From a virus (Duplodnaviria > Caudoviricetes), in the IMG/VR virus record IMGVR_UViG_3300014205_000015, positions 1 through 64,000 of that record: a stretch of DNA of 64,000 nucleotides; one strand, 5' to 3'. Positions 2,834-33,059 of the stretch are shown here, piece by piece. Below the pieces are notes generated by a model that worked only from the letters and a program-made list of their open reading frames with translations, searched no databases and had not been told where the DNA came from. The first letter of the stretch is position 1. Each line of letters opens with the position of its first letter. Both the position numbers and the translations under genes were made by a program.

Positions 2834-5800
2834 ATGAGCATAGCACAATACAGATCACTCCCAACGTCCGTTGCTACAGCAGCCGGTCTGGCGAGAACTA
2901 GCTCGCGCACTATCTCTGGTGGAGTCGTCTCTACCACTGGTAGATTGACTGCGGGTGACGGTGGGCGTGCCGACTATCTATATCGCCGCACTGGCAGGAG
3001 CGGCGTCACGATTGATGATGGAGCCTATATAGCTGGCCCTGGAAGTGACGACTACTGGGAACTGGCTAATCGCGATGACATTAACATTGCGGTGTTTAAT
3101 GTTGACCGGACTGGCGCGACCGACTGCCGCAGTAGTATCGTCTCGGCATTGGCTGTACTTAATGGCGAGGGAGTGCTGCGATTCCCGCGAGGTACTTATC
3201 TTGTTTCTACCAGCCTAGCAATAGATCACAGGATTGTTCTTGAGATTGGGGCTATTCTCAAAGCAGCCAACGGGGCGGTGATTACCCTGCCCAATAGTTA
3301 CGAAGCGGACGATCATCAGGTGTGCTTTGACATCTCCCTTGGCGGAAGTGTCTTGGCTAGTCGTGAGTATGTTTCGACTGTTCATTTTGGGGCGGATAAA
3401 ACAGGAGTGGCGGATTGCTCGACAATTCTCAACGCGGTTATTGATACATATAAAACCAGCCCCACCAAAATCAAGGTTCCGTCTAACGCAACGCACTTAT
3501 GTAACTCAACGCTTACGGTGTCTGGTAGTGGTAATCATCTCAACATATTTGGAGAAGGCGAGACTTCTTGGATTTACAGCCCCTCAGCTATAGTGGCGAT
3601 CAATAGTTCGCTCTCTAGTGCGTACACCACAATTCGTAATATGAAGATCAGTGGCAATGGACAGGCAGCAGATGGCATATACTGCCGCATTAGCGCCACA
3701 GACATAACGATTGAAAACTGCGATGTGTCTGGGTTTGGGCTTACTGGATCGACAGCGCAGATTAATTGCGAAGACTGCACGCGAGTTCGAATCGTTGGTA
3801 ATCGAGTTAGCGGTGGTGGTGATACAGAAGATTCGCTTGACTCAGATATTCGCATCCTAAACTGCCAAGACTTTGAGGTAGCCAGGAACCGATGCACATC
3901 AGGCAATAGTGAGGGCATTGCCATCAGTCAGACTACGACGGGTGGGCTCCGTGGGGTTGTAATCGGAAACATCATTACCGGGCATCGTCGTCATGGAATT
4001 TTATTTGCCTACGACAGCGACCAATGTGAGTTAGCGATTGTTGGAAACCGGATACACGATTGCCAGTGGACAGGCTTGTACTCCATTGAGGCTGACGTGC
4101 TGGAGCCGTCTAGCATTCAGGGTAAATGCGCTATTGTTGGTAACGTAGTGACGCATAGCGGCGGTGGCTACGCAGCCGATGCGGCTGGCAATGGTGGCAT
4201 CCACATTGCAGGTAGGCTCGGGACCACTGTTACAGGGAACACTGTCACAGACTGCGGCTATGACCCAGACGGCACTCTGCAAACGGTTTACGGTCGCGGC
4301 ATCTACCTCAATGGTTGCTCCAACGTAGCGTGCAGCGGTAATTCAGTAAAGAACTGTTCGAGAAGCGGAATTGAGATATTCACAAGCTGGGATGCAGACG
4401 GGATCGTGATCGGAAACAACTCAATCACAGACTGTGTGTTTGCGTGTATCACGATCAGTAACTCGGGGACAACTTACACGAAGTCTGACCTCATTGTGTC
4501 GGACAATGTTTTGCGACAAGTAACCCAGGACGGCTACGGCATCCTGATAATGGAGGATGCGGGCGGGATTGACGTGGCGATACATGGAAACACGCTCCAC
4601 GGAAGACGCGCCGGGACGAACATTCCGGCTATTTATCTGCTGCGCGAGCGAGCTAAGTCTATCTCGATCTTTAACAACACTATGGTCGAGTGGGACTATG
4701 GGCTACAAGCTGACTACGGCACAGGCGATGAGGAAGACTGGATTATCGGTATCGGCTGTCGGATGGATAGGAATACATTCATTAGTGTCGATACGCCATT
4801 TAAGACGCGGCCAGTGTACGCTGCTGTGGGTCGGTCGAATGTGTTTGTTAATTGCAACCCAGGGTTCTCGTCCTTTAAGGTTCCAGCAACTTATGAAAAC
4901 GGAGTGATGCGAGGTTATTACGTTGGCGGTTTACCAACTCGGCGATGCCGCAATGGCGATAGACTGGAGCCGCTAGAGGCCGACTCAACGCAGAACCTTG
5001 CCTGGATCAATAACGCCACGCCGCCTTCATCAAAGACGATTAGCAATTCGACGTTAGCAGACGACACTATCACTGTAACGAGCCACGGATTCACGGCTGG
5101 GCAGCGGGTGAAGGTGGCTGGTTCAAGCCTGCCAGCTCCGCTGGTTAGTGGGCAGGAGTATTACGTTAGGTCTGCACCAACTGCCAATACGCTTGTCCTT
5201 GAGGCTTTCAACTCAGCAACCAACGCTGTGGATATCACCGCAGATGGCGGCACTGGGACTATTCAGGCTCTTGACTACGATCCAAGCTGGGTGCAATACC
5301 CTGACCCTGAAGGTGCTCCACAGTCAACCTATGAAGACTTAGCCTTGTCTGCTGTCAATCGCTGGATGGGTGATGCCGATGGCGATACCAACGGCGATCC
5401 AGACGACAGTAATGGCAGTGCGGATTTAACATGGACTGGTGCGCCTGTGTATGGCGGTACGCTTCCGGTTGGCTCGGAAGGTAAGACGTTCACACTCAAC
5501 GGAACTGATAATGTCCTGACGAGCGGGGCTGGTGTTGGTGACTACACTGACAACTTTTCAGTGGGAGGCTGGATCAACCTGACGAACATTGATTCTGGCG
5601 ATAGGTTCATATCGAAGCGAGACGGGTCTAATGTGGCTTGGGATTTTGGGGTGGGTGGCGGCGGACTGATCTATATGTTTGATTCTGAGAATACTGGCCA
5701 TACTGGAAATCTCGATATTGTCACAGGGCAGTGGCAGCACATAGCTATTGTCATTAAGAATGGAATTGGCAAGTTCTACGTGGATGCAGTGCAGTCAGGT

Positions 5801-6397: not shown

Positions 6398-7018
6398 GTG
6401 GCTAACTATACGATTCCAGTAAGTTCACCTTTTATAGTGACTGGTGACGACGCATACGGCAAGCCGCTTGATACTGATTTCAGCGGTGTCAACTGGACGA
6501 CAGATGTAGTGAGTGCCGTCGAGGTTGCCAGTACAGGTATTTACGAAATCACACTAGACGACACTAAGGGTTATGCTCTGTACCGCAACGAGCACATCCA
6601 GTCATTCACTGCCGATGCTGGAACAGATGTCATTACAGCCGCTTCACATGGACTTCTGGACGGCGAGACACTTCGCTTTCAGGGCACTGACCTGCCAGCT
6701 CCGCTAGCACAGGGGACGCTGTACTATATCCGGGATGCAGCTTCTGGGACATTTAAGGTATCGCTCACGGCTGGCGGAACTGCTGTCGATATCACCGACG
6801 CAGGGACAGGCACAATGACATTCACCGCGCCAGGCGATAGGAGCATTGATGATACACTGATAGGAACAGTACCGATTGTTAATGCGGCAGCATTGACAGG
6901 CGAAGGGAGTGAAGCGCTAGTGTCTGCAATAGTGGCTAGTGAGGTCGGCACTAACTTAGCCGCTATCAAGGCTAAGACGGATTTGGTTGGAACAATCAGA
7001 TCACTGATTCGCTGGTAA
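6398..7018 (+). CDS. tail structural protein
   Basis: Shares an 'IT...HG....LPAPL..G..YY.R....VDIT' module with the tailspike; GTG abuts previous TAA. Confidence 0.75.
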   Translation: MANYTIPVSSPFIVTGDDAYGKPLDTDFSGVNWTTDVVSAVEVASTGIYEITLDDTKGYALYRNEHIQSFTADAGTDVITAASHGLLDGETLRFQGTDLPAPLAQGTLYYIRDAASGTFKVSLTAGGTAVDITDAGTGTMTFTAPGDRSIDDTLIGTVPIVNAAALTGEGSEALVSAIVASEVGTNLAAIKAKTDLVGTIRSLIRW

Positions 7019-17414: not shown

Positions 17415-17452
17415 TATTCTTTCCTCCGGGTAGGGTTTCAACGGGTTTAGCT

Positions 17453-17509
17453 GCCTCGTCAGGTCATCCCCACTACGGGATAACTACGCCCACAAGTGAG
17501 CGTTTCGGC
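17453..17509 (-). ncRNA. type II hammerhead ribozyme
   Basis: Minus strand: GCC-GAAA-CGCUCAC-UU-GUGGGCG-UA-GUUAUCCC-GUAGUG-GGGAUGAC-CUGACGA-GGC. Full core (CUGANGA, GAAA, GUA triplet) with stems III, I and II. Confidence 0.85.
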
Positions 17510-17510
17510 T

Positions 17511-22676: not shown

Positions 22677-23579
22677 ATGAGCAAACCAATGCAGATTACC
22701 GCTGGCGACAAGTACGGGCGACTGACTGTTATTCGCGAGGTTGACGCGAAGTATTCTGGTGGTCATCGCCAGAGGTGCGTGGAGTGCCGGTGTGAGTGTG
22801 GGGTGGTGAAGGAGTATCGGCTTTACACGATTCGGAACGGGAACACTAAGTCGTGTGGGTGCTTGGCTAATGAAGTAGCTGGTGCGAATTTGCGGACGCA
22901 TGGTCTTTCGGATCGAGAGGAGTATCGGATTTGGCAGGGAATGCTTAATCGTTGCCGCAACGAGAATGAGGGCAACTACCACAATTACGGAGGTCGCGGG
23001 ATTGCGGTGTGTGAGCGCTGGAAGGAATCGTTCGAGAAGTTTTTTGAGGATATGGGTCCACGTCCGTCTGTGAAGCACAGCATTGACCGCATTGACAATG
23101 ACGGCAACTACGAGCCAGGCAATTGCCGGTGGGCGACATCGAAGGAGCAGTCTAGGAATAAGCGGGTCAATTATCTCGTATCGCATGATGGCGAAACCAA
23201 GTGTGTGTCGGAGTGGGCGGAGAAGCATGGTCTCAAGTCTTCAGTGCTTTACTATCGGCTGGTTAAGCTTGGGTGGACGTTTGAGAAGTCGGTTAGCTGG
23301 CCGTCATTTAACCGTTCTTCCGCTAGGTCTTGTAATCCGCATTACCGAGTTCCGATGAAGGAGCGGGATGCTTCATGGCAGCGAGAGCATGAGCGACTTG
23401 AGGTGATTCGCATTGCGAAAGATCGCCGAGAACTGGAGTCGTGCGGAGAAAGCTTAGCCAAGTCGCATCGACTGGACGCGAGCGAGTTTAAGTCTCGAGT
23501 GGATGCTGCGCTGGTCGAAGGCTGGACGTGGAAAGGCTCGGTTTTGCGTGCATTGCAAGAGATGGGCTCCGTTGAATAA
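22677..23579 (+). CDS. HNH homing endonuclease
   Basis: YGRLTV..CRCECG..KSCGC; YGGRGI.VC.RW; IDRIDNDGNYEPGNCRWAT. Confidence 0.9.
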   Translation: MSKPMQITAGDKYGRLTVIREVDAKYSGGHRQRCVECRCECGVVKEYRLYTIRNGNTKSCGCLANEVAGANLRTHGLSDREEYRIWQGMLNRCRNENEGNYHNYGGRGIAVCERWKESFEKFFEDMGPRPSVKHSIDRIDNDGNYEPGNCRWATSKEQSRNKRVNYLVSHDGETKCVSEWAEKHGLKSSVLYYRLVKLGWTFEKSVSWPSFNRSSARSCNPHYRVPMKERDASWQREHERLEVIRIAKDRRELESCGESLAKSHRLDASEFKSRVDAALVEGWTWKGSVLRALQEMGSVE

Positions 23580-23584
23580 TTGAC

Positions 23585-23613
23585 TTGCTTTCTGGGGTCC
23601 GTTCAGATATGAT
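23585..23613 (+). promoter_or_regulatory. sigma70-like promoter for the tRNA-like gene
   Basis: TTGCTT-N17-TATGAT. Confidence 0.65.
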
Positions 23614-23620
23614 GCTTTAT

Positions 23621-23694
23621 GGAGTCGGTAGCTCAGGGGTAGAGCAGCGGGGCATGTAATCCGCGGTTGATGGTTCGAATCCGTCCCGATTCCA
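23621..23694 (+). tRNA. atypical tRNA (Thr-UGU-like; 8-nt anticodon loop, 8-bp acceptor stem)
   Basis: Cloverleaf: GGAGTCGG/CCGATTCC, TA-GCTC..GAGC D arm, GCGGG/TCCGC stem with loop GCATGTAA, GATGG-TTCGAAT-CCGTC T arm; no separate encoded CCA. Confidence 0.75.
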
Positions 23695-27519: not shown

Positions 27520-27990
27520 ATGAGCGAACGATGGGACAATCATTTCTTGCGATTGTGTCAGGACCATGCAAGGATGTCGAAAGACCCAAGCACACGAGTT
27601 GGCGCTGTAATAGTCGGACCTGACGGGGAAATTAGGTCGGCTGGATTCAACGGTTTCCCACGCGGAATTCTCGATAGCGACGAACGCCTGAACGACCGAG
27701 ACACAAAGCTAAAGCTGATGGTCCACGGGGAAATGAACGCGATTTTAGCAGCTGCGAGAGTTGGGACGCCGGTGAAGGGATGCACGCTGTACCTCGCGGC
27801 TACTGATTCATCGGGGATTGTGTGGGGCGGTCCTCCGTGTGTGCGCTGTACAGTTGAAGTAATTCAGGCAGGCATAACAGAAGTGGTGTCTTACCCCAAA
27901 CGCAGTGTTCCATCAAAATGGCATGAGGATTTGGCAATGGCTGAAACTCTTTTACGTGAAGCGGGGATTGGTTACAGATGCGTCGATTAG
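27520..27990 (+). CDS. dCMP deaminase (ComEB-like zinc deaminase)
   Basis: SKDPST.VGAVIV, GFNGFPRG, HGEMNAI, PCVRC. Confidence 0.92.
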   Translation: MSERWDNHFLRLCQDHARMSKDPSTRVGAVIVGPDGEIRSAGFNGFPRGILDSDERLNDRDTKLKLMVHGEMNAILAAARVGTPVKGCTLYLAATDSSGIVWGGPPCVRCTVEVIQAGITEVVSYPKRSVPSKWHEDLAMAETLLREAGIGYRCVD

Positions 27991-28783: not shown

Positions 28784-29269
28784 ATGGCTATTGTTGAAAA
28801 AGCAAGAGTGAAATGGGCAGATAAAGAGGCGGCAATTCGGTCGCTCGAGTCTGGCGGTAAAATCGACCCACTGGATTTGATTGAAGCCGCTCGCGATCCT
28901 GAACATCCGTGTCACTCTGATTTCACTTGGGACATCGACCAAGCGGCTGCCGAACGGTGGCGGGATCAAGCCCGTGAGTTGATTCGCTCGTGCAAGTTTG
29001 AAGTGCGAGTGGAAGACGTAGGCAGCAGGGTTTGCATGTACGTTCCATCTGGCGACGAAGATGCAACATTCGTGTCACTACCAAAGATTCGCAGCAAGGC
29101 TCAGGCGTCTGCGGTTGTTCTAGCGGAGGTTGCCATGTTGCTTGGGAATGCTTCTCGGGCATACGGGATAGCGTTGTCGAAAACGAACATTGTTGGCGCT
29201 GACGTTGTTGTTCAGTTGAAAGCGATTCGCGAACTGGTGGCTACGCTGAAGGCTGAGCTAGAGGATTGA
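28784..29269 (+). CDS. accessory protein of the array system (helical, possibly DNA-binding)
   Basis: DLIEAARDPEHPCHSDFTWD...A...ARELIRS; first gene of the operon, directly followed by array 1. Confidence 0.75.
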   Translation: MAIVEKARVKWADKEAAIRSLESGGKIDPLDLIEAARDPEHPCHSDFTWDIDQAAAERWRDQARELIRSCKFEVRVEDVGSRVCMYVPSGDEDATFVSLPKIRSKAQASAVVLAEVAMLLGNASRAYGIALSKTNIVGADVVVQLKAIRELVATLKAELED

Positions 29270-29275
29270 TTCATT

Positions 29276-29593
29276 GGTCAAGGAATGTCGGGGCGTGGTT
29301 CGGCGTGGTGTTTCAGGTTTCGGTATGCTTGGGCGGTCATGGAGAGGTCGGGCTAGGTGCGCTCTTGCGAGTCGAGTCGAGGCGGTCGAGTCCGTGCGGG
29401 GTGCGGAGTGCTCTGGTTGGGTCGGTCCAGGTTGGGTTCGGCGGTCGCGGTTAGGAATGGCGTGCTGCGGCGAGTCGGGGCTCGTTCCGGTTGGGCGGTC
29501 AAAGTGGGTCAAGGCTTGGTGCGAAGTGGTGCGTCCTGGAAAGGCGGTCGAGGCGGGGATTGGAGTGGCCCGTATTGGTCCGACAAGGCGGTC
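29276..29593 (+). repeat. 5-nt periodic guide-like array 1 (6 units, GGTC-NN-[GGY-NN]n-GGC)
   Basis: Units start at 29276, 29335, 29384, 29443, 29497, 29546; lengths 59, 49, 59, 54, 49, 44 (all 5n+4). Confidence 0.92.
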
Positions 29594-29681
29594 AGAGAGA
29601 GAAGGTTTTTGGTTTGGAGAGTGTTTCTCCAGACTCCTACACAACAGGGGTGTTTCACCCCGCAATTAAGGAGAAGCCATT

Positions 29682-30446
29682 ATGGCAAAAGCATCTGGTG
29701 TTTTGGAAGCGATTGAAGTTGAACCACTACGAGTTGGCAGTATGCAAGTCTGGCTGCGTGGTATCACGCCGCTGATCTGTAATCGATTGGCGGCAAAGGC
29801 ACGGCGCGAGCTGTTGCTTCCGAAGGGACGAAAGTCGACGGCGGAAAAGCAGCAATCGCTGAAGCATGATCCGGTAGCTGAGTTCCGAGACAGCATGAAT
29901 GTGCGATCTGGTGTTGGACCTACACGAGTAGTGTTTCCTGCGCCCGCAGTGAAGGGTTCTATGGCTACTGCCGCGCTGGAGACGAAAGGCACGAACAAAA
30001 CGCAGATTGGTCGTTTGGTTCGTGTGGCTGGTTATTCACTGGATGTCTACGGAATACCAGAATTATTCATGGCTATTGTTCGTTCGGCGGACATGGCTCG
30101 GACGCCCGACGTTCGGACGCGAGCGATCTTGCGCGAGTGGTGCATGCCTGTTACCGTTCAGTACGTCAAGCCGCAGATGTCTGAGCAGGCTATTATGCAA
30201 TTGCTTGCCAACGGCGGAATTATCATCGGAGTAGGTGATTTTCGTCAAGAAAAAGGCAAAGGCGATTTTGGCTGCTACGAGGTCGTCACCGAAGCCGATT
30301 GTAAGGACATTATCAAAAATGGCGGGTTGAAGCAGCAAGACGCTGCGATCAAGACTCCCGTCTGCTTCGACAGTGACACTGAAGAACTTTTAGGCTGGTT
30401 CCAACAGGAAGTTAAAGTTAGAGGAAAGGGAGAACTGGTTGCCTAA
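29682..30446 (+). CDS. Cas7/RAMP-like RNA-binding protein (VIPR-like effector candidate)
   Basis: N-terminal beta strand 'WLRGITPLI', FPAPAVKGS helix, RTRA..W core, C-terminal Gly-rich loop GGIIIGVGDFRQEKGKGDFG; flanked by both arrays. Confidence 0.75.
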   Translation: MAKASGVLEAIEVEPLRVGSMQVWLRGITPLICNRLAAKARRELLLPKGRKSTAEKQQSLKHDPVAEFRDSMNVRSGVGPTRVVFPAPAVKGSMATAALETKGTNKTQIGRLVRVAGYSLDVYGIPELFMAIVRSADMARTPDVRTRAILREWCMPVTVQYVKPQMSEQAIMQLLANGGIIIGVGDFRQEKGKGDFGCYEVVTEADCKDIIKNGGLKQQDAAIKTPVCFDSDTEELLGWFQQEVKVRGKGELVA

Positions 30447-30455
30447 CTGTCAATT

Positions 30456-31106
30456 GGTCGCGGAGAGGTATGGCAACATAAGTCACGGTCCGGCGAGTCA
30501 TGTCCGGGCGGTCATGGAATGGTTGGGCACGGCACCATATGGTATGTCGCGGCTTGGCGTGGCGGTCCCGGTTGGGTCCGGTAAAGCTGGTCGGGGCGGG
30601 GTGTTGCGAGCCCGGGTTTGGCGGTCGGGGTACGGTTCGGCACGGCGGGTCGGAGCATGGAATGTTGCGGCGGTCGCGTCGAGGTGCGGTGCGTTTGGGC
30701 GAGTCCAGGCGCGTCGGGGTATGGTTGGGCGGTCGAGGTGAGGAAAGGCTGCGCTAGTTCAGGCGAGTCATGGCACTGGCGGTCGCGGTATGTCCTGACT
30801 AGTCATGTGAGGAAAGGCGAGGCGGGGCGGTCGAGTCGGGTCTTGGAGAGGTTCGGTCCGTTGCGGTCTGTCCGGGCGGTTTGTCAAAGCTAGGCTGCGC
30901 GTGGCGGTCATGGTGACGAGAGGCTGGGTATGGTACGTCGCGGCGGGTCTGGGGCCGGTGAGGCGGTCAAGATTCGTCAGGTCGCGGACAGGCGGGGCGG
31001 GGTACGCTTAGGCGGGCCTAGTCCTGGCGGTCGCGTCGGGGTCTGGAGTGGCACGGTCGGGCAAGGTGAGTCGAGCTCTGGCGTGGTGAGTATCGGCAAG
31101 CCGGTC
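30456..31106 (+). repeat. 5-nt periodic guide-like array 2 (12 units)
   Basis: Units start at 30456, 30510, 30564, 30623, 30672, 30731, 30781, 30829, 30878, 30906, 30965, 31029; junction GGC-GGTC. Confidence 0.92.
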
Positions 31107-31127
31107 GTGATTGACTGTTAAGAGGTC

Positions 31128-33059
31128 ATGCAGCACAATTGCTGCATGACCTCTCCTTTTTTTGATTTAGTCCCAAAAGACCCAATTGAGAATCTCCGTT
31201 GGCGCATTCGTTGCCGCGAGCGTGCATTGGCTGATAAGCGGTTTCGAGACTCGCTATATCAAGCGTGCATGAGTGATCTTTGTTTCTGGATGGCATTTGC
31301 CTGTTGGGGATACGACCCGCGAGCCCGCTTCAAGATCGTTCCATTTGTACCCTATCCACATCAACAAGCTGTGTTCGTGGCGATGGATGAAGCCATAAGC
31401 ACTGCCGAACGTGAAGAACGATCGGTCGACGTGATCCTGGACAAAAGTCGGGCTCAAGGTGGATCTTTTGGATATCTTTGGGTCGACCTTCGGCGCTGGC
31501 TGCGCGATCCAATGTTTTCAGCAGGTTTTGTTACGAAAAATGAAGATTCGATTGATTCAAAGAGCGACTCATCGACGGTGCTGTGGAAAGTGGCATGGGC
31601 GATTGAGCGATTGCCTTTCTGGATGAAGCCCAATTACGAACGGCATCTTGGTCAGCACACTTTCATTAACAACGACAACGGTTCGTTATTGCGAGGATAC
31701 TCTGCAGGGCAAGACGTGGCAGCCGGTGGCCGTACGACTGTGTTCACAGTGGACGAAGCTGGCGCGAGAGACTTCGTTTCAGGTGGCAAAGACGAAGCGG
31801 TTCAGGAGTCTATTCAAGACGTGTCCAACTGCATTCGCATGGTCTCTGCTCGTTACGTGGATGCAGGTGTCTTTCACGAAGCCTGCGAAAACCCAGACAC
31901 GAAAAAGAACGGTATTCATCTTATACTGGACTGGAAAGACCACCCCGCTCAAAGCAAGCACTCTTACATTGTGCGAGAGGGAATCGCGGTTGCCATAAAG
32001 CCGGAAGATCAAGCGGCGGTCACGGAATACCACCGAAAACACCCTGACCTGCGATCCCGACTGGAAAGAAAAGGATTTAAATTTGAAGTGGTTGTTCGCA
32101 GTCCGTGGTACGACTCTCGATGTTTGCGCCCGACAGCCACCCCGCGACTGATAGCTTCGCAGCTCGACCGCAACCCTCGCGGAGCAGTAGGTAAAGTTTT
32201 CGCATCAGACCTCTTGGACCGCATGAAGCGAGAGCACTGCAAGGGTCCAGTTTGGGTGGGCAATCCAGTATTTGACTCAGAAACCTGCAAACTAACGGGA
32301 TTGATTCCCAGGGATGACGGCTTGCTGAAACTGTGGTTCAAGCCGGGCATCGACAACTCACCGCCGCTGGGACCGTTCACCGCGGGATGCGACATCGCTT
32401 CGGGTGGAGTTGGGGCGTATTCCTCAAACTCGGTCATAACGGCGCTGGACGACAGAACCGGGGAGCAAGTCTTGGAGTACACGGTCAAGGGACTCGAGCC
32501 ACGACCGTTTGCACGCCGGGTGGTTGGGCTGTGCATGTGGCTTAGAAACGCACTGCTTGGCTGGGAGGATTCCGGGGTGTCTGGTGGTTTTGCTAAGGAA
32601 ATCATGGAAGTTCTTTATTATGGTTCCGTGTTCTATCGGGACGTAAACCAGCTCGGTTCCCAGAAGAAAAGCCGCAAGCCTGGCTGGCCGTGCCGTGACG
32701 CAGACAAAGCGGACGATTTTGAGCAAATGGCGCTGGCGATGGAGACTGGGAAGTTCGTTCCGCGTTCCGAGGAAATGATTGTCGAGTGTTCTGAATATGA
32801 GTGGGACGGCACCAAAATCATTCACGCACCGTCGAAAAACAAGGGGGCGGCTGACAAGAATCACGCCGACCGCGCTATAGCAATGGCAGGCTGTTGGAAG
32901 GTCTTTAGCACCGATAATGCAACCCGTAAGATTGACACAGACGTGGAAAACGGTCAGAATCCAGAGTACGGCTCGTTTTTATGGCGAGAGCAGCAAGAGC
33001 GCCGGAACGTGAAAACGGGTAGCCCGAAGTTCGGGATTAGGGACATTATTGGACGCTAA
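31128..33059 (+). CDS. terL: terminase large subunit
   Basis: PYPHQ, Walker A-like KSRAQGGS, Walker B VDEAG, RNase H-like GCDIASG, HADRAIA. Confidence 0.92.
   Translation: MQHNCCMTSPFFDLVPKDPIENLRWRIRCRERALADKRFRDSLYQACMSDLCFWMAFACWGYDPRARFKIVPFVPYPHQQAVFVAMDEAISTAEREERSVDVILDKSRAQGGSFGYLWVDLRRWLRDPMFSAGFVTKNEDSIDSKSDSSTVLWKVAWAIERLPFWMKPNYERHLGQHTFINNDNGSLLRGYSAGQDVAAGGRTTVFTVDEAGARDFVSGGKDEAVQESIQDVSNCIRMVSARYVDAGVFHEACENPDTKKNGIHLILDWKDHPAQSKHSYIVREGIAVAIKPEDQAAVTEYHRKHPDLRSRLERKGFKFEVVVRSPWYDSRCLRPTATPRLIASQLDRNPRGAVGKVFASDLLDRMKREHCKGPVWVGNPVFDSETCKLTGLIPRDDGLLKLWFKPGIDNSPPLGPFTAGCDIASGGVGAYSSNSVITALDDRTGEQVLEYTVKGLEPRPFARRVVGLCMWLRNALLGWEDSGVSGGFAKEIMEVLYYGSVFYRDVNQLGSQKKSRKPGWPCRDADKADDFEQMALAMETGKFVPRSEEMIVECSEYEWDGTKIIHAPSKNKGAADKNHADRAIAMAGCWKVFSTDNATRKIDTDVENGQNPEYGSFLWREQQERRNVKTGSPKFGIRDIIGR

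Follow-up and report, generated by a model that had tools for sequence, protein, structure and literature searches.

Organization of the array locus

The DNA analysed here, hereafter the window, comprises 64,000 nucleotides (positions 1 to 64,000) of IMG/VR record IMGVR_UViG_3300014205_000015, a complete, 77.7-kb phage record with terminal repeats. The locus under study and the adjoining terminase gene contain the following features, all on the + strand:

28784–29269, +: candidate vap (vipr-accessory) gene, 161 aa, upstream of array 1; role suggested by its position
about 29277–29640, +: vrRNA array 1, delimited by 5-nt periodicity, G skew, unit parse and a GGY/NN scan
starts 29335, 29384, 29443, 29497 and 29546, +: the five clean units of array 1, the ends of which are degenerate
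29682–30446, +: vipr, encoding a 254-aa RAMP/Cas7-like protein (P0001), between the two arrays
about 30456–31112, +: vrRNA array 2, 12 units arranged head to tail with GGC-G-GTC junctions; staggered
31121–31164, +: intrinsic-terminator-like hairpin plus T run where array 2 ends, with a 15-pair stem including 8 G-C pairs, followed by CCTTTTTTTG
31146–33059, +: terminase large subunit-like gene (terL), with a weak phrog_5989 match (E 5e-4); context, outside the VIPR locus

Both arrays are G-rich, with a GC skew of about +0.4. Base autocorrelation in array 2 reached 0.43 (lag 5) and 0.45 (lag 54), compared with some 0.25–0.28 elsewhere, with peaks at lags 5 to 30 and then at 34, 39, 44, 49, 54 (the maximum) and 59, and the same periods were observed more weakly in array 1. 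Well-formed units follow the scheme GGTC + NN + (triplet+NN)n + GGC, in which the triplets are mainly GGC (43 occurrences), GGT (42), GTC (29) and GGA (14), while all 16 dinucleotides occur as NN. As neighbouring units abut at GGC-G-GTC and thereby introduce a 4-nt step, unit lengths follow 4+5n and amount to 44–64 nt, with extremes of 28 and 83 nt. The arrays flank vipr on both sides, and the GGY/NN scan detected no further array within the 64-kb window; no Rfam family was found over the arrays, and promoter-like sites at the locus were weak. The terminator-like hairpin contains the first ATG of the terL ORF (31128), with a second ATG at 31146, and terL is followed by an SU10-like portal gene.

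Several other readings of the G-rich region were considered and discarded. A protein-coding region was ruled out because the period is 5 rather than 3, and a 5-periodic flag at 23451–23625 turned out to be ordinary coding sequence. A TRAP-like ring, a helical RNA-binding sponge and a G-quadruplex array, all of which had been suggested by the 5-nt GG periodicity and the 54-nt units, were dropped because the NN carry target information. TRAP (trp RNA-binding attenuation protein) binds (G/U)AG triplets spaced by 2–3 nt, and the likeness lies in an oligomeric protein, conserved triplets at a 5-nt period and exposed spacer dinucleotides; TRAP itself, however, is a closed 11-mer ring which regulates attenuation and whose spacers are information-free.

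The AlphaFold2 model of P0001, built from an alignment of 132 sequences, reached a pLDDT of 95.9, compared with 32 when predicted from the single sequence. Its top Foldseek matches in the PDB were Csm3, type VII Cas7 and Cmr4 (E about 5e-6, probability 1.0), and the best structural neighbours were all Cas7-type RAMPs. Searching with the family profile gave a match to PDB entry 36pp_D, 'SUSP1 Vipr protein', at E 3.1e-8, and the single sequence still matched this entry, with the GVGDxR glycine loop included in the aligned part (E 0.0027). About 1500 homologues of P0001 were found, none of them named. All 14 of the first-found IMG/VR relatives (40–89% identity) carry 5-periodic G-rich arrays beside vipr, and at least 571 IMG/VR loci belong to this Vipr family. 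In phages whose Vipr is 77–89% identical, the array scaffold is kept and the NN are almost entirely different. The 161-aa ORF upstream of array 1 matches phrog_15946 (function not assigned) and gave no Pfam match and no match to a solved structure; its position fits the two-gene layout of VIPR loci (10.64898/2026.04.26.720920).

Decoding of the guide units and assignment to VIPR

VIPR (Viral Interference Programmable Repeat) has been described in three bioRxiv preprints of 2026 (10.64898/2026.04.26.720920, 10.64898/2026.04.26.720927 and 10.64898/2026.10.15.759431, the last entitled 'Competition among viral elements for VIPR RNA-directed genome silencing') as consisting of vrRNAs of 9–16 YNNGG repeats, an accessory gene (vap) and a phage-borne minimal RAMP, Vipr, which comprises an RRM core, a glycine-rich loop and a thumb. 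According to these VIPR preprints, the RNA is covered by a helical Vipr filament that holds each GGY and presents each NN, and the vrRNA NN pair with dsDNA while every third base is skipped, resulting in an R-loop triplex that represses transcription. Most of the skipped bases are at wobble positions; satellites, prophages and other VIPR systems serve as natural targets, and guides may sit on active-site codons, e.g. those of a satellite recombinase, the logic of costly escape having been published as well (VIPR preprints). 'Staggered vrRNA arrays' with a 1-nt overlap between units are presented in fig. S18 of 10.64898/2026.04.26.720920. The initial annotation re-derived the VIPR code from the raw sequence and treated the system as new; as VIPR had already been published, this view was abandoned, and no new principle is to be found here.

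For decoding, the window was searched with each unit in turn, written as a gapped NNx pattern, and shuffled dinucleotide order served as the null. Targets were identified for the following units of array 2:

30456–30509, +: vipr-targeting unit, A-[D/E]-[I/M]-[K/N]-[K/N]-T-P-[D/E]-[I/M]-R
30564–30622, +: PCP[K/N]CGGV[D/E]RF unit, with a putative primase target
30623–30671, +: patatin unit, nine NN = GG AC TC AC GG GG AT AT GC
30965–31112, +: the last two units, with terL of related phages as predicted target

In a pool of related loci, the unit at 30965 matched terL of L061 at 23/24 positions, corresponding to the peptide KSRAQGGTYCYL, and the unit at 31029 matched terL of L063 at 25/28. Both matches are in frame and in sense orientation and clearly exceed the shuffled maxima of 18 and 20 (z 9–10). 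The phage's own terL was matched in frame and in sense as well, at 19/24 and 22/28, respectively, and neither value was reached in any of 100 shuffles. Guide units of L061 and L062, for their part, match terL of L063 and L060 at 19/20. The unit at 30456 matched a vipr homologue on contigs L081 and L090 at 20/20 (peptide ADMNKTPDMR), compared with 15/20 for the phage's own vipr. The PCP[K/N]CGGV[D/E]RF unit, presumably specifying a primase-type zinc ribbon as read in the initial annotation, gave 19 exact 22-letter matches in IMG/VR, with L081 and L090 both at 22/22 (PCPNCGGVDRF). The sites of the units within 30456–30622 are located at 3257 and 9627 on L081 and at 3351 and 9334 on L090. As two adjacent guides match the same foreign contigs perfectly, their natural target is likely a rival VIPR-bearing element.

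These matches establish that NN at period 5 correspond to codon positions 1 and 2 at period 3 in foreign genes, and that the skip rule is real. Judged by their matches, the four other units with identifiable targets would aim at competing phages, namely at terL twice, at vipr and at a putative primase gene. Matches to the phage's own genes all fell short of the 80% NN threshold applied in the VIPR preprints, at 79% and 79% for terL and 75% for vipr. The sites in the phage's own terL (31443–31477 and 31521–31561) partly use codon families that differ from those of the guides, such as Ser AGT versus guide TC and Arg CGG versus guide AG; this recoding holds the self-match at 79%, just below the cut-off, and looks like escape by recoding. 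Overall, the array represents a clean natural case of guides placed on conserved motifs, including the Walker-type motif of terL, a PCPxCGG zinc-ribbon-like motif, vipr and GxSxG.

The homology of P0001 to Vipr, as judged from the 36pp_D profile match, the model confidence and the Cas7-type neighbours, together with the GGY/NN arrays on both sides of vipr and a skip rule borne out on the array, led to the conclusion that the locus is, on the strength of its sequence, a VIPR system with staggered arrays. Tandem YNNGG pentamers with conserved triplets and hypervariable NN lie beside vipr, the 1-nt skip is followed in frame by the terL, vipr and putative primase matches given above and by 58/59 matches of the patatin unit (see below), and self-targeting at ≥80% NN is absent.

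As in the VIPR systems of Escherichia phage SUSP1 and a Pseudomonas fulva prophage, a Vipr RAMP is combined with GGY/NN vrRNAs flanking vipr and a small upstream gene, the 1-nt skip falls on wobble positions, and rival phages and vipr genes are targeted; the avoidance of own genes at the 80% NN level, the placement of guides on active-site codons and the staggered array (fig. S18) likewise agree with published VIPR. In contrast, the sequence of this Vipr is distant from that of SUSP1 Vipr, as seen from the single-sequence match, and the units abut without a recognisable 3' tail between them, unlike those of SUSP1 and P. fulva, from which the present system also differs in its host, probably a member of the Planctomycetota. 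A further difference from published VIPR is that one guide appears to be aimed at patatin-like phospholipase genes. With Class 1 CRISPR (Cas7/Csm3/Cmr4), the system shares the RAMP fold and a protein filament on a guide RNA that interrupts pairing periodically, whereas the VIPR locus lacks identical direct repeats, cas genes and an adaptation module; moreover, 2/5 of the RNA bases pair with 2/3 of the DNA bases in VIPR, as opposed to 5/6 in Class 1 CRISPR.

A guide unit spelling the patatin catalytic motif

The unit at 30623–30671 has the letters GGTC gg GGT ac GGT tc GGC ac GGC gg GTC gg AGC at GGA at GTT gc GGC, and its 49 bases parse as GGTC-NN-(triplet-NN)8-GGC. Read as codon positions 1 and 2, the NN give G-T-S-T-G-G-[I/M]-[I/M]-A; the initial annotation had already reported that the nine NN spell GTSTGG[I/M][I/M]A, and the same dinucleotides were recovered when the unit was parsed anew. 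The predicted target is GGxACxTCxACxGGxGGxATxATxGC, and, as the skipped base is the wobble position, the guide would read the codons of the patatin nucleophile elbow (G-x-S-x-G) whatever the codon usage. Its nine NN place the unit at the lower limit of the published vrRNA range of 9–16 repeats, and two of its triplets, AGC and GTT, are off consensus. The chance of obtaining this string from the array's own dinucleotide frequencies was estimated at about 1e-10 per unit. The earlier observation that the window holds no patatin gene could be extended to the whole 77.7-kb record, which is free of the site at ≤2 mismatches. Since the phage's own genome lacks the target, the latter must lie in the host or in another mobile element.

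Searching IMG/VR with the gapped pattern GGNACNTCNACNGGNGGNATNATNGC returned 59 exact matches, 58 of which are in frame within ORFs where, as in patatins, an oxyanion motif of the GGGxxG type (DGGGxRG type) precedes the site by about 35 aa. A Pfam scan of matching ORFs identified 7/7 as PF01734 Patatin (E 1e-21 to 1e-32). The GC content of the exact-match loci is between 19% and 67%, and none of the wobble letters is constant among them. As controls, the same dinucleotides in reversed order gave 3 matches in IMG/VR and another 9-NN unit of array 2 gave 4, which corresponds to an enrichment of the patatin pattern of about 15–20 times over control patterns. We therefore regard 30623–30671 as very probably a vrRNA of functional type, predicted from its letters to specify patatin-like phospholipase genes.

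In the VIPR preprints, supplementary target tables aside, the words patatin, CBASS and phospholipase occur 0 times each, and anti-defence is not mentioned. Patatin-like phospholipases thus appear to be an unreported class of VIPR target.

By analogy with published VIPR, the + strand of the array would be transcribed, and Vipr protomers encoded at 29682–30446 would polymerise along the vrRNA, each holding one GGY-type triplet and presenting the adjacent NN. The NN would then pair with one strand of the target DNA while the third base is skipped, and the R-loop/triplex formed in this way would block transcription. For the patatin guide, the expected outcome would be the silencing of patatin-like phospholipase genes outside the studied phage, an effect that could be directly tested by the published GFP-repression and plaque assays.

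Recurrence of the patatin guide in other VIPR phages

A search of IMG/VR for the nine dinucleotides of the patatin unit at 5-nt spacing and a scan for the guide core revealed patatin guides in one further phage each. In the first, a complete virus of 104.6 kb (G408, locus L192), the hit falls within a GGC/NN array of 950 nt that has GGC-A-GGC junctions and is read on the opposite strand; this unit comprises 11 NN, with the antisense decoding AGTSTGGIIA[I/M], and the array lies downstream of a gene for a Vipr homologue (E 3e-21), at a distance of 0.5 kb. The second, a 43.5-kb virus with terminal repeats (G409, locus L197), carries a sense unit decoding to GTSTGGII[K/N] and encodes its Vipr homologue (E 2.6e-21) elsewhere in the genome. 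The Vipr proteins of G408 and G409 share 48% identity, and that of G408 is 23% identical to the Vipr of the studied phage. The patatin target site is absent from all three guide-carrying phages. As scaffolds, strands and lengths differ, the patatin guides seem to have arisen separately rather than by copying. What is new here is the target: three divergent VIPR phages aim at one patatin catalytic motif, a class unreported in the VIPR preprints.

In about 96 related VIPR loci searched, no further patatin guide was found, the best candidates, L061 and L062 at 17/18, being within the shuffled range, and the arrays of the closest relatives lack the patatin unit. A metagenome scan for the guide core returned one background match and one short ambiguous run.

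The absence from close relatives, together with the shortness of the unit and its two off-consensus triplets, would be compatible with a motif spelled by accident or with a guide that has decayed and fallen out of use. We consider either to be very improbable, given the full-length 18/18 match to a motif enriched over the controls, the low estimated chance of such a spelling and the fact that units of two other VIPR arrays target the same site independently, one of them in antisense.

The unit adjoining the patatin guide of G408 (G408:C1, about 30612–30670; L196, about 6613–6671, −) has the antisense decoding PFDLVYADPPW, which resembles motif IV (DPPY/W) of N6/N4 DNA methyltransferases and may represent another catalytic-motif guide.

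Genomic context of matching patatin genes and possible function

Two metagenome-assembled genomes, assigned to Planctomycetaceae and Thermoguttaceae, hold contigs with a 73%-identical Vipr. On the basis of these two bins, Planctomycetota is suspected to be the host phylum; a patatin target was found in neither of the two. Among 401 Planctomycetota genomes, the exact patatin site was present in one (G245) and the control pattern in none. The 18/18 site of G245 lies in a PF01734 patatin gene directly after a gene for an SMODS/DncV-like cyclase, and neighbouring genes encode GajA-like (AAA_15 + OLD-TOPRIM) and UvrD-like (GajB-like) proteins and a Rep3 initiator. Its gene content marks this locus as a CBASS operon within a defence cluster, and the contig is plasmid-like. 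In a set of 151 Planctomycetota genomes, eight more patatin homologues matched at 17, 15, 13, 15, 17, 14, 14 and 13 of 18 positions, i.e. at ≥15/18 in four cases, and the 17/18 patatin gene of G070 adjoins a DncV-like CD-NTase gene. The check proposed at the outset, a search of candidate host genomes with the gapped pattern, thus did lead to CBASS loci, exactly in G245 and at 17/18 in G070.

Another 17/18 patatin gene (L184; G039:C45) adjoins a gene with a class III adenylate/guanylate cyclase domain and not a CD-NTase gene. One IMG/VR locus (alignment A2), with an exact match, also has patatin beside a class III cyclase and, together with L184, may represent a Pycsar-like pairing.

The CBASS matches bear on the possible anti-defence role raised in the initial annotation, in which the array may silence a host defence effector or a patatin gene of another mobile element. 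In the anti-defence form considered here, a CapV-type patatin effector of CBASS, or of a similar abortive-infection system, would be silenced in the host, a resident plasmid or a prophage, and the phage would thereby be protected from membrane-disrupting suicide. What stood of the initial proposal is that the guide spells patatin codons, that its target lies outside the phage and that matching genes occur in CBASS context; a defence effector is a candidate for the natural target. In favour of the anti-defence reading, CBASS operons account for the best matches within the suspected host phylum, one of them with a Gabija neighbour, and a CD-NTase neighbour was found in 5–6 of 35 viral exact-match loci (about 15%). 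In L023, CBASS adjoins an integrase gene. The recurrence of the guide in three divergent VIPR lineages points in the same direction, as does its placement on the catalytic serine motif, which would make escape of the target costly. On the other side, most of the exact-match patatin genes have no cyclase neighbour, the exact site occurs in only 1/401 sampled Planctomycetota genomes, and the VIPR preprints report no host immune target. When run against the CBASS loci examined, none of the other units of the array scored above shuffled background, and no other guide in the array points to a defence gene. Furthermore, silencing that begins after infection leaves the effector protein that has already been made untouched, which, on general grounds, makes a straightforward anti-CBASS function less convincing in the case of a lytic phage. 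On balance, we consider an anti-defence role of the patatin guide plausible, and the silencing of a CapV-type effector as its actual use close to evenly poised, though somewhat short of it.

Some of the exact-match patatin genes without a cyclase neighbour were located in phage structural or lysis modules. In L040 and L013, the patatin gene lies between a gene with a Tlde1 domain and a 643-aa ORF together with an SU10-like portal gene, while in L004 it adjoins a peptidoglycan-hydrolase-like gene. Such contexts would suit a purely inter-phage competition, in which the target is the patatin-like phospholipase gene of a competing phage or satellite, e.g. one that belongs to a lysis or entry module and is newly expressed upon co-infection, with no role in defence. 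The targets predicted for the four other decoded units favour a mobile element as the target of the patatin unit too, and published VIPR targets are likewise satellites, prophages and other VIPR systems; in addition, L040 and L013 stem from the sample series of close relatives of the studied phage. However, kinship with the patatin phage L040 was ruled out, as its terL and portal show no similarity to those of the studied phage, and none of the other guides of the studied phage and its close kin matched L040, L013 or L004 above shuffled background. Five records of the phage family targeted by the putative primase unit also lacked the patatin site, even with 3 mismatches allowed. Taken together, we hold competition between phages to be a possible explanation, albeit one less likely than not, and what is left beyond a defence effector and a rival-phage patatin gene falls to a target that is unknown or to an inactive guide. 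A patatin effector that is carried by a resident mobile element and induced on infection would reconcile the defence and mobile-element views.

A phage-borne, RNA-guided system directed against a host-resident anti-phage element is reportedly found in phage ICP1, the CRISPR-Cas of which targets the PLE island of Vibrio cholerae. ICP1 CRISPR-Cas acts by DNA destruction and uses adaptive contiguous spacers, whereas the VIPR guide, presumably hard-wired, reads its target noncontiguously and is directed at a protein motif, with the defence target being a candidate only.

If CapV-type effectors were the natural targets, this would be the first case of noncontiguous RNA-guided silencing of a host immune effector by a phage. 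The more general proposal, namely that VIPR also serves as RNA-guided counter-defence and that guides against the patatin catalytic serine arose repeatedly, on either strand and in divergent phage lineages, appears doubtful at present; if true, such guides would silence suicide phospholipases (CapV-type CBASS effectors and relatives) across hosts of any codon usage, and VIPR would be extended from inter-virus conflict to counter-defence.

Additional features of the window

A dCMP/cytidine deaminase gene (PF00383, E 1.6e-16) is present at 27520–27990 on the + strand, about 0.8 kb upstream of the VIPR locus. A type II hammerhead ribozyme was detected at 17445–17510 on the − strand (50.6 bits versus a gathering score of 37); hammerhead-interspersed arrays have been described for other VIPR types (VIPR preprints), whereas the present ribozyme lies about 12 kb away from the arrays, on the other strand and outside any array. 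At 23621–23694 on the + strand, a tRNA gene was found (Rfam, 45.1 bits), for which ARAGORN reported a four-base anticodon (atgt) and no amino acid, suggesting an enlarged anticodon loop.
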